From Lophium mytilinum (Eukaryota), in assembly GCA_010093605.1 (NCBI GenBank), contig MU004190.1:1434961-1498960 (forward strand): DNA of 64,000 nucleotides. Direction: 5' to 3'. How positions within the stretch are numbered: position 1 is the stretch's first letter; every line of letters starts with the position of its first letter. Shown here piece by piece: positions 915 to 64,000 of this stretch. A program made the translations under genes and the position numbers. The notes beneath the pieces were generated by a model that did no database searches, was not told where the DNA came from, and worked only from the letters and a program-made list of their open reading frames with translations.

Positions 915-1751
915 ATGGGTACCAACAAGCGTAAACGATCCACGTCGAATCCAGCACCGAAAGGGAAAAACGCTAGACGCGTATCATCGTCAACGCTCTC
1001 TCACGCTGAGCATCCCGACGAGGCGACGGCTCAAGCAGCTGCTGCACCGCTGGCCAAAAAAAAGCGAAACGGGCCCGTTGCTACATCGTGTAGAAGCTGC
1101 ATCAAAGCCAGATGTCGCTGCACCCGCGAATACCCAACCTGCAATCGCTGCACGACCAAACATCTCGACTGCCACTACGACGGCATAACCCCTAGCCACG
1201 CCCCGCAAGCTAGGAGTCTAGATATGCATGCTCAACTGGAGCTGAGAGCAGAACCCCTGGCTCCGGGCCCTAGCCAACGTGGATCAAGGGCGGCAGAGGC
1301 ATCAACCAGCGGAAGTGGCAGCACCGCAAACACTACGAATGGTCAAGCCCCAGCCAGCAATGTAGAAGGGTCCCGGAACCACATAATGCAACAAATGGAG
1401 GTAGCAAATGAAACTGGAGCGACGGAGGCTGCCGATCGAATCCTGGCCAACATTCAGGTCATCGATGATACCACGGCGGACAACGCTACAATACATGAGG
1501 CACCTACCGCTTTGGTCCCCCAAATGCGGCAGCACGTTGCTCTTGAAAATGTTGGTGCTCTCGAGATGGTCTGCGAGCTGCTCTGGCGGCTTCCCCGTAG
1601 TATGATCGTTACTCCGGCTGCCCTAGGCTGGGTCTTCTTTCTGCTAGAGCACAATGGCGTACAAGTGACCGCGGTTGAAAGACAGATCATTGAAAGAGTC
1701 GGTTTCACTATGGGAGGCCTCCTCGACGCGTTCTTCCGCCATGGCTGGTAG
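915..1751 (+). CDS. Zn(II)2Cys6 binuclear-cluster protein, short (278 aa), with an unrecognised C-terminal helical domain
   Basis: Intronless ORF with C-x2-C-x6-C-x6-C-x2-C-x6-C (CRSCIKARCRCTREYPTCNRCTTKHLDC) and basic NLS-like stretches (KRKR, KKKR). No fungal TF middle homology region is visible. Confidence 0.85.
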   Translation: MGTNKRKRSTSNPAPKGKNARRVSSSTLSHAEHPDEATAQAAAAPLAKKKRNGPVATSCRSCIKARCRCTREYPTCNRCTTKHLDCHYDGITPSHAPQARSLDMHAQLELRAEPLAPGPSQRGSRAAEASTSGSGSTANTTNGQAPASNVEGSRNHIMQQMEVANETGATEAADRILANIQVIDDTTADNATIHEAPTALVPQMRQHVALENVGALEMVCELLWRLPRSMIVTPAALGWVFFLLEHNGVQVTAVERQIIERVGFTMGGLLDAFFRHGW

Positions 1752-2891
1752 AGATCTACTACGATCGTACACTACGAGGAGGAAGACTTGGTATGACGAT
1801 CCACACGAACTGCTTTGCTTTGTCGTCCCTCCTTTACTGAGTTTGTAATAGGTTGAATAGCTGCGTTTACGAAGCTCTTTACCGAAAGATTAGATTGAGA
1901 TCCCTAGTCTTTGTGAAAAGAGTCCTTATGTGCTTCGAGAATGAGACATACCGGGATATCATACTGATAGTTCAAATTACTGCAGACTCAAGGAACGGCG
2001 TCTAAAGAGGTTCCGACTATCGAGGTGCTTCTTACTTATTCAATGAGATTCAATCTTCTGATCCAATAGTGATGGTTTACCGTGACTATATGCTTTGACG
2101 CAGCTCACTAAAGGTGAAGAGACTCGGTGGGAGTTGCACTGGTACAGTACAATGATCTGCGAGTATCGTGACGCACACCTTTCGTGATATATCTGCTTGC
2201 ACATTTACGGTATTCCTGGCTCATGCTCCATCCACGCAGGCGGGCGTGAGGTTATGTATCACGTGATGATACCTCGGAGGAGGATAGGTAGACGATATGT
2301 ATGAACCCAGCTAAACGTTTTCCATGGTGCTGCACGCCCGTACGGGTCTAGCTATCCTAGATGATTAGAGTTGGTCTGAGGCATCCCAATAGCTTACATC
2401 ACGTGCAATTGTCTCCGAGTTTCCACCGAATTTTGAGGTCTGCCGATATCCTAGCGCAGCATGCCGTCCCGGACATCCCTAGACGGCATCGTTCGGCGTC
2501 AAAGATCGATCTTACCAAGCTGCTTGAAGAGGCTTAGGACGTGTTCAACTGCGGAAGGTCCAACCTGCTGTTAGAATTCTGAGCTTTCGGATAACTACCC
2601 TTACTGGGTTACGTCAAGTCCCTCGAATCGTGGTCCTTTTGTTGGTGTGAGCCGCTCAATGTCGTCTAACCCGCGTTGCACAAGCGGCCCAGTATAAGAG
2701 TCACTTTTAAGCGAGGACCTCATAGAGGTCAGGTGCATCCATCTTTTCTACTGCCATCTTCCTTCTTCAAAACAATTTGAAAGCTTCATTCCTTTAATTA
2801 AGAAAAAATTCCAGCTTTTCGCAAGTTTCAGAATCGTCATACTCTATTGAATCATTGCGTTGTGCACACATCGCAATTACGACCTTCAACT

Positions 2892-4244
2892 ATGAATCCA
2901 AATCGTCGAGTTACCAGCTCTCTAACCGATCTGCTTCTCGCCGCACCTATAGACACGAAGAAATACGAGGCCCTTTACAAGCACTTCCATGAACACCCCG
3001 AGCTCTCGAATCTCGAGGCTGAAACTGCCAAAACGATTGCAGCCGAACTATCGCGTCTCCAGGCTTTCGACATAACTACCAACATCGGCGGCCATGGCCT
3101 CGTCGGCGTGCTCAAAAATGGCCCAGGCAAAACTATTCTTCTACGCGCCGACATGGACGCCCTCCCAATCTTGGAGGCAACCGGCCTTCCGTACTCCAGC
3201 AAAGTCACCATGCTCGACGTCGAGGGCGTCATGCGGCCGGTGATGCACGCGTGCGGCCACGACATGCACATGACGTGTCTCCTCGCTGCAGCTGAAACGC
3301 TACTTAAGCTTAAAGAAAAGTGGAGCGGTACGTTGATTGTATTATTCCAACCTGCAGAGGAGCGTGGTAGTGGAGCGAAGGCGATGGTAGATGATGGCCT
3401 GTATGGAAAGCACAAGATCCCCGTGCCTGACTTCCTACTCGGTCAGCACGTGATGGCGATGCGGGCAGGAAGTGTGGGATCGAAACTAGGGACGATTATG
3501 GCCGGGGCGGACAGCATGAAGATTACCATGTTTGGAGTTGGTGGTCATGGATCCCAGGTAAGTGGATACTACACAGTATCAATAGCATCCAAGAACTGAC
3601 ATATACAGCCACATCGAACGATTGACCCCGCTGTCATGGCTGCTCACGTAGTAGTACGCCTCCAGACTGTTATCAGCCGAGAGATCAATCCAAGTGATGT
3701 CTCCGTTCTGACCGTCGGAAGCTTGCAAGCCGGGCAGACGGAGAATATTATCGCAGACTCGGCAGAAATTGGCATCGACATACGCAGCGTGCGACCGGAA
3801 ACGCGCGAGAAAGTTCTGGCCTCCATCCAGCGAATCGTCAAAGCTGAATGTGAAGCAAGCGGTTCGACAGTCGCACCCGTGTTCAAAATGACGCGGCATC
3901 TTCCAACCACGGTGAACGACGAGCCGATGATGAAAACGCTAGAGAAAAGCTTCAGTGAGCATTTTGGAGACGACTTTGATGCAAACATACCGACGACTAC
4001 CATTGCGGAAGACTTCTCGATCCTCGCAACATCGCAAGGTCGGCCTTGTGCGTTTTGGCATTGGGGAGGAATCGAACACGGGCTGTGGGATCAGTCGCTG
4101 AAGGAGGGCAAAATTGATGAGATTCCCGCCAATCATACAGCGAGGTTCGCGCCGGTGATCCAACCTACGATGCGAACGGGTATTCATGCTCTCTGTGTTG
4201 CTGCTCTTGCTTTCTTTGGCAAGAAGTCGCAACATAGATTGTAA
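2892..4244 (+). CDS. M20-family (M20D/Acy1-like, hippurate-hydrolase-like) metallo-amidohydrolase
   Basis: Motifs HPELS, LRADMDALP, MHACGHD, FQPAEE, GGHGS|PH and AEDF. One intron at 3558-3608 (GTAAGT...CTGAC...CAG) joins ORFs 2847..3599 and 3636..4244. ATG at 2892. Confidence 0.92.
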
Positions 4245-4596
4245 CTAGCGAATCTTTTCATTACGTTTGCCAATAGAGACACTGTATACGTTCAGAACTG
4301 AAGCTGCAAAGATCTGAAAACTTATGAAGATACAGTCAGAAAACCACCAGAACGAAGCATAGTATATGTACGAAGTATCACTCATCATTCACCATGCACA
4401 GCAGCCATATCCACCTCTACTAACGGCACTCCTTGTTTATAAATCCTCAGGTAGCATCCAGGGATTTTTCTTCTTTCTTCTTCATCTACCTCCAAGAACA
4501 CCATCAAAACCTAACCAACCACACTCACACCCACCACCTGCCAATTCCGAACCCCATTACCACATCGAGACATTTGAGCACTGGGTTCCAACGAAA

Positions 4597-5262
4597 ATGC
4601 CGCCAAAAAAATCTACGAAGCGAAAGGGGTCTACTCAAACAGCCTCTTCAACCACAGCCCCACGTACATCAACTCCAGCTACCAACGCAGCCATGGCCGA
4701 AGTAGCATCAAAGCCTACGACGTCCACCAATCAAAAAGCCGTGACAGCTTCAGCACAACATCCCTACCAAACGAGATCGACCGGCCTCGTACTCATGACC
4801 GCAGAGACAGGTAGCAACGTGGCTGCGGCTATCGAAGCCGGCTCTCGCCACCAAAGCGAGCTTCCTTTTGAAGGAGAAACGACCACCAACGCCGTGGTTC
4901 GACCCACCCTCAGAAACGCCAGGATCGCCGGATTAGTTCGCCATCTTGTTGGCATGCTGCCCTTTGCTACGGCATTTCCTCCAGCAAACGCGAAGGCTAC
5001 GAGGGCTATCACCCACATACGCGATCAACTTTGCCAACTAACAATCGGTCAAGTCATTTCCGGAGGAGTCTTAGCTTGGGTAGCTTACTACCTGTACTAC
5101 CACTTGCTAGATCGGGACGAGGTTCCACTTTACCTCTCCGATCGATCGTGGCAGGCAGAGGTTCTTTACTCCCTGGCGCGTCTTCGTGACGACTTTCATG
5201 GCGGTTACCACGAGCCGTTGATAGAAGAAGGCCCAAATGGGGAGGTTGGAAGGGGTCGTTGA
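4597..5262 (+). CDS. Orphan protein (~221 aa) with basic N-terminus; C-terminal domain resembles that of the 915-1751 protein
   Basis: Open frame. The likely start is MPPKKSTKRKG at 4597, downstream of a TATA-like TTTATAAAT near 4436. The C-terminal block aligns by eye to the Zn2Cys6 protein tail. Confidence 0.6.
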   Translation: MPPKKSTKRKGSTQTASSTTAPRTSTPATNAAMAEVASKPTTSTNQKAVTASAQHPYQTRSTGLVLMTAETGSNVAAAIEAGSRHQSELPFEGETTTNAVVRPTLRNARIAGLVRHLVGMLPFATAFPPANAKATRAITHIRDQLCQLTIGQVISGGVLAWVAYYLYYHLLDRDEVPLYLSDRSWQAEVLYSLARLRDDFHGGYHEPLIEEGPNGEVGRGR

Positions 5263-5732
5263 GTATGGATCGGCGCATGAGTTGTAGAGGTGGAGCGATG
5301 TGGCGGTCAGATACCTAGGTATCCTCCTGTTACAAGATATAGACATTAATAGGCTTGATGAGCTATGAGTAGAGTGCTTCTAGCCGACCCAGGTACCCAT
5401 CTCATAGAATGAAATCTGAATTTGATGAACTGCCTTTATATTGAAAAGTATCAATATGCAACCATCCGCATAAGTGCAAACTCGGATAATTGCTAAACCG
5501 AGTGCCAACCAGTGTATTGCCCCGTGCTTCCACCACATTCCAGCGTGTTCTTGTCGTGTCTGAAGACAAAGGCCAAGCAGGTGGAACAGCCCCATTCACC
5601 ATATGCTGACTTACCAGTCATTAGCGCACTTACTCGCCAACCACACCACTCCTGACTTCTCTTTACAACTTCCACCTGTACCTCTAACCCGCCACCTCGT
5701 CAACCTCTCCAACCGTGCTTGCCACCCACCAA

Positions 5733-6593
5733 ATGGCATCGCAAAACCCACATATCAAACAAGAAGACGACGTGCAGTCCGCGCACTCAGACTCAGTCTT
5801 CAGCGTGCCGTACGAAGATATCGACGACGAGACTTGGCAAGCACTACTGGCAGCAGAGAGCAGCGAACCAGAACCAGAATGGGAGGAAGAGGTAGCTGAA
5901 CCGTCAGGCGGCGAGGCGGAAGGTTCCAGCCACGCACAACCACAATCGTCAAACGCCGCACCAGGAGCTTCTGGAACGCCCACGCCAGGCATGGAGGAGA
6001 GCGTCACTTCCACACTAGAACGTATACAGAAGCGGGCCATTGCAGAGGACTCTTCAGACGATGAGAGCGACCAAAGCCCGTTGAAGCGGAGAAGCCCGAA
6101 TCCAACAAAGCGCCGTAGAACTATGGGAGGGATGCGTGCAGAGGAGGAAGGTCGCGCTCGTCTGGCAGATCCTCCTCGCAGGGTAGGATATCCGAGCCTA
6201 CCTACATCTGAAGAGGGACCTGGAGGAGCTGCCTGGAGAGAAAACTTAGAAGAAAGCCCAGAGCGGAGCTCAGAAGAAAGTCCAGAACAGAGCTCAGAAG
6301 AAAGCTCATGGGATTCCACCACTGGAAGTGAGGGTGCAGCAGTCCAGACCTCCACACCACCGGTTGTGCTTCAGCCTCCCGGTGCCACACTCACTGGAGT
6401 ACCGAATGGAGCCCCACCTGGCTTGACTCTCGTTGGCTCGATTGATGCCGCTTTACTGTTGCCGGGGTTGGGCACTCACCGTGCTATCAATCTCTATGTC
6501 CGCGATGCTGACCTAGGAGGTCCAGCACCTGGAGGATATACGAGCATTCTTCAAGCTTTGGCTCGTTTCTTGAGGCTTCCAGGGGGAGGCTGA
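5733..6593 (+). CDS. Orphan acidic, largely disordered protein with NLS-like motif
   Basis: 286-aa frame from ATG 5733 (MASQNPHIKQEDD). It is D/E-rich, contains PLKRRSPNPTKRRR and has a short hydrophobic C-terminal segment. Confidence 0.55.
   Translation: MASQNPHIKQEDDVQSAHSDSVFSVPYEDIDDETWQALLAAESSEPEPEWEEEVAEPSGGEAEGSSHAQPQSSNAAPGASGTPTPGMEESVTSTLERIQKRAIAEDSSDDESDQSPLKRRSPNPTKRRRTMGGMRAEEEGRARLADPPRRVGYPSLPTSEEGPGGAAWRENLEESPERSSEESPEQSSEESSWDSTTGSEGAAVQTSTPPVVLQPPGATLTGVPNGAPPGLTLVGSIDAALLLPGLGTHRAINLYVRDADLGGPAPGGYTSILQALARFLRLPGGG
6248..6309 (+). repeat. 24-bp coding tandem repeat (~2.5 copies) encoding EESPERSS/EESPEQSS/EESS
   Basis: agaagaaagcccagagcggagctc agaagaaagtccagaacagagctc agaagaaagctc. 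Confidence 0.8.
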
Positions 6594-7319
6594 GCGAGAT
6601 ATGGGGCGAAGAGGGTGTATTATCCAGTGAGTAGCCTATTCCAGATTGCTAGGTTGAAAGGTTCTGACTACTAGTAGAGTCCAATCATCACAGGTCTCTC
6701 ACAGGTCAATGTCACGAGGGAGGGGCCATTTGGTCTGGCTTCATGAGGCTTTTGGGGTTTAATGTCTGATCAGAGAGAGCATGCCGGAGGTTGTACAGTT
6801 CTGGGTCTTATATTTTGGCACACGGAAATCTCACTACTTGAGTATTACTCTTGCTCACTTGGAACCACTGTAGGCGGTACCCTAGCTAGCATATCCTAGG
6901 CCTGTTAAACGGTAGCCCTGTTCCAGACTGTATGGACTTTCTGATTCTATAGGAAGTATCAAAACCATGTTAGCACACCCCACGCAGACCCAAGGAGTGC
7001 TCAAGCTTATCTCAGGGTGCTATACCAAACACTCAAGTTCTGTAGTAGATAATGCCTAATCAAGTTAAACTAAAAGTGAAGGTCGATGATGTACTCGTGT
7101 GACCCCGTGATATGACTCAAGAGTGAAAGTCTGAATCGCCTACGAGATATGAGCTAAGGCTGCGGTGTTTGCTATCAGTTGCAGCAGTAGCTCGACATTC
7201 ACCAGTAAGCTCAGACAACGCTTAGCACTGCCATCTGCCAGGTAACGTATCGTTGGAAACCTCGAGGTGAAATCTGTTCAGTTTCCTCATCGCCACCACC
7301 AAACTCGAAACAGGTCGTC

Positions 7320-8507
7320 ATGGCTCCTAATCCATCGCCCTCGGCGTTACTTGGCTCGCCTGCCGAAGCAGGTCTAAAAGGGTGCGCTGCGGTGGCTCTC
7401 CTATCCCCCAAACTGGACACCAAATTCGACGAATCTGCCGCTGAGAAAGTTGGTCGGGTCGTTGAGCTCACGGAGCAAATCCTACAACATCTCCCTTTCG
7501 TCGATCTTCTCTCGGCAAAGCTCATCTGCAAACAATGGCGCGACATCATCAAAGCCTCCTTGCCAGTCCAACAGCAGCTATTCGTAGTCCCGTTTACGTA
7601 CCCGCCGACGCTAAAGCTTCCGGGCTACTTACTCCCAAAGTCTGGCAACTATGGATCTGGCGATCATCAAAAGGACGCTCTCTATATAGTGGAGCCGATT
7701 GGAGGACAGCAGTGGCATCCAATGCTGCAGGAACTGTTCCAGACCCGAGACTGGCAGCAGGACGACGACCCAGCGGCCAGCTTCCGTCCATTCTCATTCC
7801 ACCTCGATGCGTATAACGAATGGGTTCCCGAATGGAAAAACGGCGAGGTCTCGTTTCCAAGATACCCAGAGCTCGTCCGCCTGGTCAAGAAGATTGCGAC
7901 GGCTGCTGATGGCGAGTGGCAACTTGCGCTCTGCAGCCAGCCTCCTACGGCACTTCTGGAATGCACGCGACTTGGTGCCACTAGATATCGTGGTTCGAGA
8001 CAACTAGAAGTGCTCTTCAAAATGGCTGCTGAGGAGGGATCAGATGGCGTCTCCATGGGTCAGATTCAGGCTTGTTTTCGGGATCTAGTGGTTGAAGTGG
8101 ATGTCGTTGCGGCTCAGGCGGGGAAGTTCGAGAGGAGTGTGGCTCGGTTCAAGAGGACTATCGAGAAGGAAGGATATAAGCCGAGTCACTTCTCCAACGG
8201 CTCGAGCTCAACGGAGGCACCCAGTTACATACGCTATCCTTTGGACAACCTTAGGCCGGCTCGACGGGAGATCCGACTACCCCCTAAGCGCTTGCTCGAC
8301 GCGAAAGCCCGGCTCAAAAGGAAGCAAGACGACCTAGTGACTGCTCTTAATCCGGTTGAGTATAAACTCAAATGGTGCAGACATTTGTTCGGTGGCGAGA
8401 ACGTGTCCTGGGACCGTGACTGGGACGACCGTCCTTTGATCCTATTGGATGGAAGGGAGAGTCTCGTACGTTGTGTCGATTATATGCAACTTATGGAAGC
8501 GAACTAA
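7320..8507 (+). CDS. F-box domain protein (395 aa, intronless)
   Basis: N-terminal F-box-like motif VVELTEQILQHLPFVDLLSAKLICKQWRDIIKASLPVQQQLF, typical of lineage-expanded fungal F-box proteins. Confidence 0.75.
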   Translation: MAPNPSPSALLGSPAEAGLKGCAAVALLSPKLDTKFDESAAEKVGRVVELTEQILQHLPFVDLLSAKLICKQWRDIIKASLPVQQQLFVVPFTYPPTLKLPGYLLPKSGNYGSGDHQKDALYIVEPIGGQQWHPMLQELFQTRDWQQDDDPAASFRPFSFHLDAYNEWVPEWKNGEVSFPRYPELVRLVKKIATAADGEWQLALCSQPPTALLECTRLGATRYRGSRQLEVLFKMAAEEGSDGVSMGQIQACFRDLVVEVDVVAAQAGKFERSVARFKRTIEKEGYKPSHFSNGSSSTEAPSYIRYPLDNLRPARREIRLPPKRLLDAKARLKRKQDDLVTALNPVEYKLKWCRHLFGGENVSWDRDWDDRPLILLDGRESLVRCVDYMQLMEAN

Positions 8508-8890
8508 CGTAGGAAACAGATTGACGCAGCTTAAAGATTCAGCCGACCTTGTTACCAAGCATTACGTGGCTTAGTCGTTGTAAGATTGGTGTCTATCTAA
8601 CACGGGAGTGATCCGATGGCTTGTAACACGGGTGGCGGAGGATAGTAGTGAAGGCCAACTTCAATCATGGTCATTGCTTATCAGAAGTTCAGAACTGAGT
8701 GCGCTATACGAGAACAGCACAGGAGATGGTGTCTGCATCCTGAGAGCCATGGGAAAGCAACTCTCGAAACTCAGCGTCACTGAAACAAGCAACTTTATGC
8801 CCAAATGTGTAAGTCATTGAGGGCCGTACTTGCGAGGCCCACACTTTGTCGTACTCGGTACATTATCGTAACTTCAAATACAAGGACATT

Positions 8891-10716
8891 GTCGGCAATG
8901 TTACGCCTGGCTACGGCGATTAGCACCGATGCTAGGTGTAATATTGCCGTTGGAGGAGACTAACTTACCCTCTACGCTGAAAATTATGAATGTGCGCCTT
9001 GTGTTAGACCTTGTCGGCATTCTCACATCTAGCACCGGCGCTTAGTACCACTGCTAGGTGCAATATCACCGCCTCAACTGGAGGACCCGCATAAACCTTG
9101 ATATATGACGATTTGATCCCCGATCTGTTTATTGACCGCAATATAGTACCGCTGAGCGGCGCTGAATGCCGATGTGAGGTGTTGCATCGCCGCTGGAAAC
9201 TGAGGTACTTTGATTGAAATGCTATTTACGGTATTTCCAACTTCTCTCCACTTTCGACGGTAATCTAATATCGCTGAGCGGCGCTGAATGCCGATGTGAG
9301 GTGTTGCATCGCCGCTGGAAATTGAGATGCTTGACTATTTATACTACTTACAGTATCTCTACCTTCTCTCTACCTTCGACAGTGACTAGCACCGCTGCGC
9401 GGCGCTGAGTACCGTTGCTAAGTGTAGCATCGCCGCTAGAGTTTAAGGTACGTTGGCTCTTGATGCTACAGTATTTCTACGTGGTCTCCAACTTGAACGG
9501 CAATCCAACACCTCTGTACGGCGCGAAACACCGATGCTAGGTGTAACATCGCCGCGGAAGTGAGCTGCAATATCATCTAATCTGTGAAATAGTACATGCC
9601 TAACAAATTAGAGGTTGCCGGCAATGCTACACGTAGGAACGGTTTTTAGTACCGATGCTGGGTGTAGCGTTGCTGGTAAGGTAGGGCGACCCGAGCGAGT
9701 TACTATCTACTCTCTCGCTACTAAAATGTGATATTACAAAAATACTATTTCCCGCCGCAAAATCTATACCACCGATGGGTGATTAGTACCGATGGTCAGT
9801 ATAGCATTGTCGGCAACGTAAGCAACCCTGGTAGATTACTCTTGACTCTTTCTCCTGAAAAATTGATATTAGCAAGTATAGCATTTCTCGCCGCCATTCT
9901 CATACCGTAGATCGGTGCTCAGTACCGATACTAGGTGTTGCATTGCCGACAATATAGGGCAAAATGGAAATTACCCTCTAGACTCTCCTATGAAAGGGTA
10001 AATGTATTAAGTATACCACCTCTCGCCGCAAACCTTATACTATTTTACGGTGCTTAGTACCGATGCGAGGTGTTAGATTGCCGACCATATAGATTGAAAT
10101 ATCAATTGCTCTCTAGTCTTTAAAAAAAGAAATACATTAAGTTTACTGCTTCCCGTCGGCGATATCATACTGCAGAACGGTGCGTGTTACCGCTGGTAGG
10201 TGATATATTGCCGACAGTTTAGGGCAAAATGCAAATCACTCTCAAGACTCCTTAAATAGTGAATATAATAAGTGTACTACTTCACGTCGGCGAAGGAACA
10301 CTGTTGAACGGTGCTTAATACCGATGCTAGGTGTAGCATTACCGACAAGACCGGGCAGAGAGGTAAATTACTCTCTAGTCTTCTTAATCAGTAAATATTA
10401 CTTCTAGTCGTTGATAAAATACTGTTGATCGGCGTTTACTACCGATGCTTGATATAGTATCGCCGATAAGATTGGGCAAACTAGCAAATAAGTCTCCAGT
10501 TCATAAAAAATTAGATATATAAAGTGTTCTATTTTCCACCCGCGATCTAACACCGCAGAGCGGCGGAGAACACCGATGCGACGTATAGCATTGCCGCTAG
10601 GTGAGCTGAATCACCGTTCAGCCTCCCAAAATCGTGAATATATGAAGCGTCTTACTTCTCGGCGGCGACCTAACACCACAGAACGGCGCAGAATGCCGAT
10701 GTGGGGCGTAGTCATA
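8891..10716. repeat. Array of 15 imperfect palindromic ~57-bp cores (CGG-N18-CGG-N9-CCG-N18-CCG) with AT-rich linkers, period 119-137 bp
   Basis: Inner CGG positions are 8914, 9036, 9157, 9279, 9400, 9519, 9640, 9777 (GGG variant), 9913, 10048, 10178, 10309, 10430, 10561 and 10684. The right-arm consensus CCGATGCTAGGTGTAGCATTGCCG approximates the reverse complement of the left arms, e.g. CGGCAATGCTACACGTAGGAACGG in unit 7. Confidence 0.95.
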
Positions 10717-11595
10717 TTATTAGGATATAAAACTCAAGGTCTTAGAAAGAAGCATAGTAAATGTATCTACCTCCTTTATATCTACCTCTCCCTGAGGACC
10801 CGATGTACGATTATATGCGTCTCGGGTACTTCTTCGAGGACTACTACAAGGCGCAGGGCGGATTATATCCTTTTGCGACCTCCGCAGTACTCAAGAAGCC
10901 CATATAAGTTATAAGTTCTAGCACAGAGCTAGATTTTCTATCTCCTTGCGCACGACGACCTACGAATATGCGTGATTCAAAGAGACATTATTGAAATAGT
11001 TGGTATTGCTATCAGAGGCATCTCGATAAGCTCTATATGATCACTACCAACATGAACACTGGGGGAGAATTCGCGCAGCCACAGCCTGTTACGTTGGGTA
11101 TCAACGGCACGTTTTGTAAGATTCTCTTATCCTCTATCTCAACATTATGCAATTATCTTGAAACGAAGGCATTATATCTTTTCAGGGAGTGGTAATTCCC
11201 GTTCAACTTCTCATAAAGGAAGACTACTCATGGGTTGCCCGTCTAATCTTATTCTAGCTATTCCTAGCACGGATAACATGCTTTGAGATCCGTAAACTGC
11301 TGCTTTATCCGACTTACTTTTTAGAAGTGAAACCGTCTTATGCATTAGGGGCTTCTAAATTTTCATACCCCTCTCTTTGTTCATCGTTACGAGTTATATA
11401 CAAACAGTATTGATTATTTGACTGACATCCACCCCAGTGGATTACCTTAAAGGCAAAGCACACCACTAGCAAGTCCAATTCACGTCATCAAAGTGGAGTT
11501 TTGAGTCTTACGACTTCCAACCCCAAGCCCCAAACCCTGCTCCCTCTTATTTCCAATCACGTATCACCTTGTTCCACCACCAACGCCACGCAACT

Positions 11596-12318
11596 ATGCC
11601 CCTGACCCTTGACCCAAGAGACAGACAAGCCCTCATAATTGTAGGCGCCGCGATCATAACCACGGCGCTTTTATTAGCATACTCAAGCGTCAAACCTCCA
11701 AGTATTCCTCAACCCACTGCTCCAACAGTCCCAAGGAAGAAGTACAATAGAGCGAAGACGCGCAAGGACAACCGAACTCTACCAGTCCCTCAACATGCCA
11801 GTTCGTCCCAGGCCGTGGGAAGGAGTGTCGCGGTCGCGAACCAGACCAAGCTCAACACAACGGCTCCAGGTACGGGGAAAAAGTTCATGCAGCCATCCCA
11901 CACCCCCCCAGGCTCCCCACCCAACCCCCCATCCCCAACCAAAGAAAGATCTCCAACCCACCTCTCCCAAACCGCCGCAATCCCCACCTCAGCCGAAACA
12001 ACTCCTAGATCTACGCCATCGTCAGGCCCAAGTAGCCCGAGCGACGGCGCCACGATAGCGGCACCTCAAACGACAGTGGTTGAAGCATCGGGGCTCCTCG
12101 CGAGGCAGACTTTTGTATCCACGGGGTCGTATGTGATAGCTCAAGAGCTGATTCGTCGGCTGGCGGAGATTGCAGCGGAGAGGGAGGCTCTGCGGGCGGA
12201 GGAGGGGTATGACGAGGGGTATGAGGGCGAGAAGGAAGGAGGAACAGCGCCTGGTGTTTTGTACGTCTGGAGGCGAGGGTGGCGGAGGGGAGGGGAGGGG
12301 AGTGGCAGAGGTGATTGA
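11596..12318 (+). CDS. Orphan protein with N-terminal transmembrane helix and P/S/T-rich disordered body
   Basis: ATG 11596 (MPLTLDPRDRQ) followed by the hydrophobic stretch ALIIVGAAIITTALLLAY; 240-aa open frame. Confidence 0.5.
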   Translation: MPLTLDPRDRQALIIVGAAIITTALLLAYSSVKPPSIPQPTAPTVPRKKYNRAKTRKDNRTLPVPQHASSSQAVGRSVAVANQTKLNTTAPGTGKKFMQPSHTPPGSPPNPPSPTKERSPTHLSQTAAIPTSAETTPRSTPSSGPSSPSDGATIAAPQTTVVEASGLLARQTFVSTGSYVIAQELIRRLAEIAAEREALRAEEGYDEGYEGEKEGGTAPGVLYVWRRGWRRGGEGSGRGD

Positions 12319-13128
12319 GTGGGTTGCGGTTGGGATGGCTGTGGGTTTTGATTACTTTTGGTTTGGTCGGTGATGAGAACGCAAAATGAGCATTTTTGTT
12401 TTAGTTCAAAGTGAATATACCTACTCGTTAGCAGTCGGCGGCGCTTATTGAATGATAGTTCTCCTTTCTCGCGGAGCTACAGTGTCCTCCATGGATATCC
12501 GTACACTTCCCTGTCACTATTTATAGGGGTTCCACGTACAGTTAGAAATTGTGGGTAGTGCACACGCTTCCAATTCGCGTACATCATGCTGTCACTGTCT
12601 GGAGTACCCTCGTGAGTTTGCTAGTAGTCTAAAATGCCGCATTTCTGTCTTATTCCGAACGCTGAAAATACTACGATCCTCCTCAAGCAGCGATAAACAA
12701 CTGTACGGATTCCTGTGACGAATCATTGTGGTTCTAGGTTAGCATTCGGCGGTGATTACCGAAGCATACTGCTCTCTACTCACGGGGTTAGGGGTATCAG
12801 CGGCAGTACCCTCGCTCGATGTGGACTGTGAATAGTATAGGTGATCTTGCGAAAGAGAAAGGACACCCAGACTAGTCGTGAGCGGCATTAAGGAAATAGA
12901 CGGCAATGAAGATGCTCGGAAGGCGTATATGTTACCCCTGACCAGCAGCTTCTCCTTGGAAGTACCCCTCAATATTTAAGGTCTTCACTGCCCGACAGAT
13001 ACTCACTACACCTAAACCTCATCTACTAGGCAACTATGCCTTGTAGACTATCAGCAAGCTCTCCATATACTTACTCCTCTTACCTTCCACCTACCTCAGC
13101 AATCCAATCCATACCAAACTTCTCAAAG

Positions 13129-23559: not shown

Positions 23560-23840
23560 TAAGGTGCTATGGCTTACTGAGATTTTCCGGCAGAGATGTA
23601 GAAATCTGGACAGTAAGACTTGGGCAGGTGCTCAATTGCTGCTTTCGACCCTGTTATACCGCCGTCTGAGGCGTTCTGGCATACTGAGAATTCCCTGTAG
23701 AGATGTAAAGATTGGCACAGTAAGAATTGGACCGGTGCTTAATTGATCTTGTTGGCTCTATTATACCACCGTCTGAAGTACTTCAGTAGGCAGGAAGGAT
23801 TATAGGTAAGATGTAATATTTGAGGGTGTCAATAAGATTC
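23560..23840. repeat. Degenerate ~107-bp tandem repeat (~2.5 copies), non-coding
   Basis: tactgagattttccggcagagatgta...cagtaagacttgg...ggtgctcaattg...ttataccgccgtctga at 23575 versus tactgagaattccctgtagagatgta...cagtaagaattgg...ggtgcttaattg...ttataccaccgtctga at 23682. Confidence 0.75.
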
Positions 23841-61699: not shown

Positions 61700-64000
61700 A
61701 GTAAAGCAGTGTAATATTTCTAATTACGTAATATAAGAATTTTAAAAATAATAGATATTAATTCTATATAGAAATCTAGCTAGGCTATATATATTAGAGA
61801 GGCCTATATAGGCCTTAATTATACTAGATCTATATAGAAAAGTATTTCTATAGTAGATCTATATATTATATATATAATATCTAAATATTAACTATATATT
61901 AAGAATTCTATATTTTCTTCTTCTAGATTTAATTTACTATTAAATTATATTTATAATAGTATATTATGCTTACTACTTTACGCTATATATTATTAGTATA
62001 TTAGGCTATTAGCTTCTTTAGAAGCTTTAAAGCTTCTAGAGGTATATAATACTATAAAAAGTATATTAGTAGGTAGTAATATTATAGTAATATTACCTAA
62101 GAGGGGTTTAGAATTCTTTAGAGGTCTACTACTATATTAGTAGGGGATAATAAAGGTATTAGAATATTTAATAGCTTAATAGTAAGAAAGAATTAGAAGA
62201 GATTATAAAGTATTTATAATAGAGGGAATTATAAAGTAATATAAATATTAGCATGCTAGCGTATATTAGGTTCTAATATATAATTAAAGCTATAATAGCT
62301 AATAATAGGCTTATTAGAAATCTTATAAAGTTTCTTATAATCTAGTAAGAAGCTTATAATATTATATAGATTTAAGAAGCTATTAGTATATTATAGAGTA
62401 GTAAGTAGTAATTTAAAAGTAATAAATTTAAGAATCTAGAGTATATATAAGGCCTTCTTAATACTCTTATACTTTTTCTTCTATACTTAACTTTCTTCTT
62501 TAAGGTTTAAGCTTCTCTTATCTTTAAAGATTTATTAAAGACTTTTATAGCTTCTCTTTTTATTACTATTATCTTTCTTTATTAATTCTTTTATTAGAAC
62601 TCTCTCTCTCTTAGCTTCTAGGCTATTTCTTCTTACTCTAAGTTAGTATTATAATATTACTTAATACCTAGCTAGGTTCTATAGCCTCTAGCTTACTCTA
62701 TTTAGAAAGAGGTAGAGATAGAGGTAATAATTCTTTAAACTCTAGCTATAGTTATAAGGTTCTATACTCTTATAAATTCTTAGGTATTTTAGCTTATAAA
62801 GCCTTATAGGCCTATAGTAAGTTTTTAATAATAGTTTAGCTTTTTCTCTTAATAAAGCTAATAAGATCTAGTTACTATTATACTTATATTAATTATTAAC
62901 CTTCTAATAGTCTAGAGGTTCTATAATCTATACTATATATAGCTAATAGCCTTTAATAACCCTATTCTACTTTCTTAAGCCTTCTAATACTATACTATAG
63001 CTTCTAATTATCTAAACTATACTAAATACCCCCTAAAGTTTAAAGATAGTAGTAGAGCTTAAAGAAATATACTACTTTAAGAGTTTCTTAGTAATATTAG
63101 AGATAATAAACTAATTTTAAATAAAAACTATAGCTATACTTTACGCTTTATAGGGCTTCTTAAATAGTATTTAGGCTTAAGAGTAGATTATAGTAAGAAT
63201 TTTAGAGCTTTTTCTACCTTTAGGGCCTATAACTACTACTTAAGAATATTCTTAGAAGGCTATTAGTTTAGTAAATATATTTAGGCTTATAATCTAGATA
63301 GTTCTTCTCTCTACTAAGGATTCTATATAGAATATTATTAGCAGAGTAGTAAGAAAACTTATTTATTCTAAGGTAAGTTTAGCTTTACTTTTAGAGTATT
63401 TTAGAACTTAGCTAATATCTATTATAGAAGAGTAGACTCTAATAGCTTATTAGAAGACTACTAGGGCTTATATTTAATAAGGTTACTATAATATTACTAA
63501 GTTTATATCTTCTCTTTATAACTAAGAATCTTTTAAGAACCTAACTAAAAATATAGTATACTTAGCCTTAGCTATATAGCTACTAATAGAATTAATTTAA
63601 AGAAAGACTACTATACTACTATATAATCTAGATATTTCTTATACTTCTATTTCTTTAATAGCTTAATATTACCTATAGGGCTCTAGTAGTACCTCTACTT
63701 AGGCTTTTAGTTTAAGATCTAGCTTTTAGTAATTATCTATAGCTATATTAGGTTTAGAAAATATAGCTACTTTAGATTCTAGTACTTAAGGTCTAAAGTA
63801 ATACTCTCTAACCTTTTCTACTTAGCCTTTAACTTCTCTAACTTCTTTAACCTCTTATTATTCTTCTTTAGGTTCTCTATAGTGCTTTTAAGAGTCTACT
63901 TCTAATATACTATTAAGCCGCCGCTTATCCTAGTTATCTATTAGTAATAATAATAACTCTACTAGAGAGACCCCTCTAAACTCTACTTAGTATTAGATAG
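61700..64000. mobile_element. RIP-degraded repetitive/transposon relic (family not assignable)
   Basis: Abrupt switch to very AT-rich sequence with heavy TpA excess and almost no CpA/TpG. No ORF of 60 aa or more. Continues past the window end. Confidence 0.85.

Follow-up and report, generated by a model that had tools for sequence, protein, structure and literature searches.

Satellite or minisatellite DNA in short, euchromatic arrays, with a conserved protein-binding box, is the general class in which the element described here has its nearest counterparts. This element is a non-coding tandem array of 15 units in the fungus Lophium mytilinum, found in a 64,000 bp stretch of contig MU004190.1 (positions 1,434,961 to 1,498,960, here called the window; G000:C10:1434961-1498960 in the 43.4-Mb assembly; the DNA of one strain is described). 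Its units carry CGG and CCG triplets, and the triplet spacing of known Zn2Cys6 sites is N11 for Gal4, N10 for Put3, and N6 for Ppr1; the length of a unit is akin to that of the centromere site of budding-yeast CBF3, about 125 bp. Dimeric binding to paired CGG triplets is typical of Zn2Cys6 proteins (PMC5559640), which makes a Zn2Cys6-type site the natural inference for the core of the array.

With the short-array satellites the window array shares head-to-tail diverged units of 100–200 bp that form subfamilies along its length, a conserved box with decaying spacers, and an intergenic position, but it is confined to a single locus and its box is an arrangement of CGG/CCG triplets that is a binding candidate only. 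The Gal4-class sites (Gal4, Put3, Ppr1, Hap1, and Leu3), as described in PMC5559640, have paired inverted CGG triplets like those of the core, where, however, the spacing is N9, a third triplet follows 18 bp on, and there are 15 copies. Literature searches, which covered only a minority of subscription papers, found no paper with 'CGG-N9-CCG' in any of three spellings and no description of this array or of its gene patch. The likeness to CBF3 is one of ingredients only, these being a zinc-cluster protein (Cep3), an F-box protein (Ctf13), and a CCG site (CDEIII) (PMC5771398). The window array is tandem and at a single locus among 49 contigs, not one site per chromosome, in a gene-dense context; the F-box protein encoded nearby has no leucine-rich repeat (LRR) match in Pfam; and no Ndc10-like gene was seen nearby, Ndc10 not having been searched for. 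A CBF3-like point centromere was rejected on the single locus and the lack of an LRR match. The 126-bp tandem enhancer of cyp51 in Penicillium digitatum (PMC4336317) has a similar unit length and copies upstream of a gene, but those repeats are recent and tied to a phenotype, whereas the window array is old and strongly diverged and any regulatory role is putative. The PRO1/ADV-1 motif, GGCGCTTA (PMC6162560), is contained in the majority letters of the core; it is exact in only one of the 15 units and is a lead only.

Every unit is an imperfect palindrome of about 57 bp around CGG-N9-CCG, exact in 13 of the 15, with spacers of 62–80 bp and 38% GC between the palindromes. The CGG-palindrome array of the preliminary description is borne out, as are its roughly 60 triplet positions, although 48 of the 60 are intact (inner left 14/15, inner right 14/15, outer right 12/15, outer left 8/15). 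There are 13 occurrences of CGG-N9-CCG in the 1,840 bp of the array, where about 0.4 would be expected from the 78 found in 400 kb of sampled genome. In leave-one-out scoring the units reach 36–71 bits on the unit profile, and nowhere in the rest of the window is a score of 12 or above seen. The units are non-coding, the longest stop-free stretch in six frames being 86 codons. A DNA run over the array is interrupted only at the near-duplicate units 3 and 4, with no differing letters or gaps otherwise. The median distance between units is 0.87 substitutions per site, with a mild bias resembling repeat-induced point mutation (RIP), C>T plus G>A making up 46 of 136 changes.

DNA and pattern searches of the 49 contigs place the array at a single locus in the genome. 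No further copies were found by DNA search, none of the 2 and 3 outside matches from pattern searches scored on the unit profile, and a profile search of 911 kb of fetched loci gave no further unit copy. Two metagenome pattern matches stem from one isolated site, present in two AT-rich contigs that have no arrays, and were judged to be chance; of these two contigs, the one with open reading frames (ORFs) listed looks bacterial.

The spacers evolve faster than the core. When units 1–14 are placed on a single tree, the rate is 0.71 for the 57-bp core and 1.26 for the spacers, and rates vary strongly within the core (alpha 2.4) and little within the spacers (alpha 14). Core identity between units is flat at 0.64–0.70 regardless of distance along the array, while spacers grow less alike with distance, their identity declining from 0.58 to 0.44 (0.46 for shuffled sequence). 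Across units 1–14, 2 changes are seen among the 84 letters of the inner triplet pair. Neutral change was simulated 2,000 times at each of four rates, and at none of them did more than 1 run show so few changes (P ≤ 0.0005), the rate matched to core identity included. Because 28 of 30 inner triplets are intact, against 8 of 15 for the outer-left CGG (Fisher, P 0.003), the triplet is not simply immune to mutation.

The constraint is asymmetric. Across units 8–13 the centre is 80% identical, the right arm 69%, and the left arm 55%, with the flanking DNA at 54–58%. Since the left arm has decayed like the flanks while the centre and right arm have done so more slowly, the kept element is CGG-N9-CCG-N18-CCG; the palindromic core described previously therefore stands for its constrained CGG/CCG centre, but it is lopsided. 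The array thus has, like satellites with a box, a segment conserved above the rest of the unit, and constraint on the core, compatible with a Zn2Cys6-type site, is supported.

From these patterns the array is read, with moderate confidence, as an old, locus-specific short-array satellite with its core kept as a putative binding-site cluster. Its origin is the tandem duplication of a palindromic unit, and within every unit a stretch of 36 bp, CGG-N9-CCG-N18-CCG with TG, GT, and AT at fixed positions, would have been held by selection, the spacers and left arm decaying meanwhile. The core would provide candidate double-stranded DNA sites for binding by a factor of the Zn2Cys6 type, its gene lying anywhere in the genome, and the array may act on a neighbour as a putative enhancer or silencer, one candidate being the 11596 gene, which has the nearest gene start downstream, about 870 bp away. 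Several points weigh against this interpretation. Invariant-column counts are significant at the faster simulated rates but, taken alone, not at the core-matched rate (P 0.16–0.18). The neutral simulation was without context-dependent mutation; the spacers of units 1–2 align poorly, which inflates the spacer rate; the units are related to each other, which makes the Fisher P optimistic; and the RIP-like bias may overstate the age of the array. As regards the neighbouring Zn2Cys6 gene at 915, the synonymous divergence (dS) of its zinc-cluster segment is based on 17–30 synonymous sites, and an array is found near the closest paralogue of this zinc cluster too, 1.8 kb from it on C8.

A functionless minisatellite in neutral decay, the core of which only looks conserved because G/C triplets mutate less or have been homogenised, is possible but clearly less probable. 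Such arrays are common in this genome, C>T changes are fewer in the contexts CG (14/165) and CC (6/90) than in CA (14/90) and CT (12/60), and the left arm has decayed to flank level; rates are also symmetric at mirror positions of the palindrome (rho 0.70), which a shared mutation context could yield. However, the same triplet is kept at the inner positions and lost at the outer-left one, T and A columns of the core are near-invariant too (+1, +9, +16, and +23), and core identity is constant with distance.

In the preliminary description the array, the Zn2Cys6 gene, a zinc-less paralogue, the acidic protein, and the F-box protein formed one cis-plus-trans module. In such a module the array, bound by the 915 protein, would serve as a dedicated enhancer, sponge, or segregation element under the control of the F-box protein; this is improbable. 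The Zn2Cys6 motif (CX2CX6CX5-12CX2CX6-8C) is present with all six Cys intact, though the Pfam Zn_clus match (E 0.006, 17.1 bits) is under the cut-off of 21. The 328-aa database model departs from the plain ORF at the C-terminus, and the 278-aa form is favoured because RNA contigs read 1332–1892 without a gap. The relative of the zinc segment on C8 is a 399-aa Zn2Cys6 transcription factor, and the DNA likeness ends with the segment. At the position of Gal4 Lys18, placed by motif spacing, the 915 protein has Arg and the C8 factor Lys; Lys18 has a role in CGG contact (PMC5559640). After the zinc cluster there are no clear heptads by eye, and the C-terminus is from an unrelated orphan family. Over 36 codons the segment and the C8 gene have 4 synonymous and 11 non-synonymous differences (dS 0.20, dN 0.14), other bounds giving dS of 0.13–0.23 and dN of 0.11–0.19; dN/dS is about 0.7–0.9. 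As the Mytilinidion resinicola orthologue of 4597 and the other paralogues are without a zinc cluster, recent capture is the simplest reading, and the 915 gene is inferred to be a young chimera with a zinc cluster captured from the C8 transcription factor. This cluster appears to be far younger than the array and under weak constraint; given a dS of 0.13–0.23 against the median unit distance, the core was probably kept well before the 915 gene acquired it. Alternatively, an older zinc cluster in the 915 gene may have been overwritten by gene conversion.

Nor is the closeness of gene and array unusual. Among 20 control blocks of 20 kb at round coordinates (one, largely AT-rich with Ns, was retained), 3 have non-coding arrays of at least 4 units, 2 have arrays of at least 8 units (one 60% inside ORFs), and 5 hold a Zn2Cys6 motif. 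Arrays and Zn2Cys6 motifs are both common in the genome, so that a Zn2Cys6 gene near an array is expected by chance. One of eight paralogous Zn2Cys6 loci, the C8 donor, has an array (P 0.57 at a 10% base rate). The C8 array belongs to an unrelated dispersed family, with matches at about 15 loci, and is without the CGG-N9-CCG core; a Zn2Cys6 motif lies within 10 kb of 1 of the 6 loci of this family examined, against 5/20 controls (P 1.0). Within this genome, then, arrays and factors were not associated above chance, and the position of the 915 gene near the array is most likely incidental. Other arrays were seen as well: a degenerate non-coding one at L005:6098-7553, 34 kb before the window, with a spacing of about 135–240 bp and unrelated to the window array, and a 107-bp array at L079:2238-3020 (G000:C4), the core of which also has a CGG/CCG palindrome, with 107-bp repeats also at window positions 23562–23776 and on C5 and C8.

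The six Cys and the basic residue at the recognition position that are kept in the 915 protein, the cover of its gene by RNA contigs, the CGG-based core, and the array near the C8 donor gene too would be in keeping with a module. They are set against proximity at background level, a zinc segment younger than the array and with the dN/dS given above, a C8 array of another family, and an F-box family that is large and scattered (at least 15 related matches in the genome, including one just before the window). A relative of the 915 protein is absent among 2,861 candidates of 152–487 aa, longer or unannotated forms not having been searched, though orthologues of three neighbours were found. It is slightly less probable still that the array is an old putative platform for the C8 factor, and that the 915 gene captured the zinc cluster of this factor, joined it to a hydrophobic helical domain, and now acts as a decoy or tether at the same sites beside its own gene. 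If the 915 protein, with a zinc cluster captured from C8, does bind the array, domain capture would here have given rise to a regulator next to the array that it targets.

Direct BLASTP of the 915 protein against the 4597 ORF found nothing, so that the zinc-less paralogue claimed for this locus is recovered only through the M. resinicola orthologue of 4597, which bridges the two (26% over 161 columns, E 2e-7; E 0.036 genome-wide). By this bridge the 915 and 4597 genes are taken to be real, though distant, paralogues. A third family member, a clear paralogue of 4597, is 2.1 kb upstream of the window (L002:7873-8274, + strand). A + strand orphan about 4 kb before the window (L002:6020-7177) is a weak candidate for a fourth (probability 9%); these two orphans have N-termini that are basic or C-termini that are hydrophobic. 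As modelled by AlphaFold, the orphan domain is helical (mean pLDDT 62); it has no match in the PDB at E ≤ 0.001, the ESM Atlas gave no usable match, and no relative of the 4597 protein was found in viral contigs.

A cluster of RNA hairpins resembling microRNA precursors, with the conserved right arm as mature small RNA, is likewise unlikely, to about the same degree as the decoy. In its favour, the better-preserved arm is the right one, with a length of about 24 nt; long hairpins form when units 1 and 7 are folded (z -5.8 and -9.3); and G-U exceeds A-C at mirror positions by 64 to 47. This excess is not significant (P 0.13), however, and pairing equals that of shuffled partners, without covariation, both for the long hairpin (83.1% vs 82.9%) and for the small hairpin inside the right arm (79.2% vs 79.0%). 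Folding energy is alike on both strands (mean -22.6 and -21.6 kcal/mol), z is -3 or below on the + strand in just 3 of the 15 units (1, 7, and 8), and a left arm is no more like its own right arm than like those of other units (P 0.32). Rfam gave no match below E 1.3, and an ARAGORN scan gave nothing. The array shows neither the compensatory changes nor the strand preference of a structured RNA; with sequence kept and pairing not, it is better explained as a DNA site under constraint than as an RNA hairpin. Units 7 (9616–9678) and 1 (8890–8952) are, unlike the others, near-perfect long hairpins, possibly because one arm is occasionally copied onto the other.

Cross-species evidence is at the protein level only. 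In M. resinicola a single relative is present for each of the 4597, F-box, and 11596 proteins (60%, 58%, and 54% identity), so the genes of the window, described as orphan-like, are not strict orphans in these three cases. All three orthologues are on one 446,750-bp contig in the same order, with accessions ending 463, 461, and 451 (KAF2802461 for the F-box protein and KAF2802451 for 11596). One M. resinicola model is between the orthologues of 4597 and the F-box gene, presumably at the place of the acidic ORF, and the nine accession numbers that separate the orthologues of the two array-flanking genes hint at a change of gene order at the array spot. In the 40 kb upstream the genes are, by reading of their ORFs, of housekeeping type. 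Since the neighbours are common to M. resinicola and lie amid such genes, they look like a vertically inherited patch of fast-evolving, lineage-specific genes rather than cargo of the mobile or drive element suggested earlier. A search for the DUF3435 captains of Starship-type mobile elements had no match in this genome, but none in control genomes either. A remnant of a mobile element or a rearrangement breakpoint (amplified terminal repeats or recombinase sites, for example), which the palindromic units and the nine intervening accessions might recall, is very unlikely, there being no second copy in the genome, or by profile in the fetched loci, no transposase-like ORF or RIP-degraded block noticed in the 40 kb upstream, and no RIP degradation of the array flanks.

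The six genes from 915 to 12318 are all on the + strand, as first described (Table 1); they do not flank the array evenly, five being on one side and one on the other, and the + strand run is interrupted just upstream of the window by an F-box gene on the - strand. Basic patches are indeed present in three of the proteins (KRKR and KKKR; KRK; KRR and KRRR). That all but the amidohydrolase gene are intronless agrees with RNA contigs, identical to the genome where placed, from which the amidohydrolase intron is spliced out and which span 3606–5396, as well as the 915 region, gap-free; it is only putative for the F-box gene, where the 386-aa database model has a C-terminus unlike that of the plain ORF. 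The F-box itself was correctly recognised. A single RNA contig, 2827–5396, crosses both the amidohydrolase gene and the 4597 gene, where transcript overlap or read-through is possible. RNA contigs are missing from the array, the acidic ORF, and the F-box gene, which does not imply that these are silent. Elsewhere in the window, a short dispersed non-coding element at 12490–12700 has several 70–85% identical copies in the genome and is seen in RNA and DNA contigs, and the DNA at 62000–64000 is AT-rich (25% GC) and bears strong marks of RIP (TpA/ApT 1.89; CpA+TpG index 0.03).

Table 1. Features of the array locus and of its relative on C8, in window positions unless a contig is named
Feature	Position	Strand	Remarks
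Non-coding tandem array	8890..10722	.	15 units, period 119-137 bp
Unit centres	8921, 9043, 9164, 9286, 9407, 9526, 9647, 9784, 9920, 10055, 10185, 10316, 10437, 10568, 10691		
Chimeric gene, 278 aa	915..1751	+	basic N-terminus, Zn2Cys6 cluster, C-terminal helical domain of local orphan family
Zinc-cluster segment, 137 bp	1074..1210	+	84% DNA identity to 5' end of G000:C8:667778-668977
M20 amidohydrolase	2892..4244	+	one 51-nt intron (about 3558-3608); ordinary enzyme gene
Zinc-less family member	4597..5262	+	open frame also from 4366; M. resinicola orthologue
Acidic low-complexity ORF, 286 aa	5733..6593	+	single copy, no Pfam match
Lineage-specific F-box gene	7320..8507	+	Pfam F-box E 1.5e-7; M. 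resinicola orthologue 58% identical
240-aa gene, N-terminal hydrophobic segment	11596..12318	+	M. resinicola orthologue 54% identical
C8 array	G000:C8:664290-665980 (L027:7290-8980)		ten units, non-coding, period 159-191 bp; 1.8 kb before C8 Zn2Cys6 gene

As best explained, the array is of modest significance, being one more intergenic array in an array-rich genome, but the evidence for retention of its Zn2Cys6-like core is unusually clear. Domain capture is neatly illustrated by the young zinc-cluster chimera, and binding of the array by the 915 protein, if it occurs, would show the way in which a regulator can come to be linked to a cluster of its sites. Whether short-array satellites of fungi serve as clusters of regulatory sites is a question for which the array itself offers ready material.

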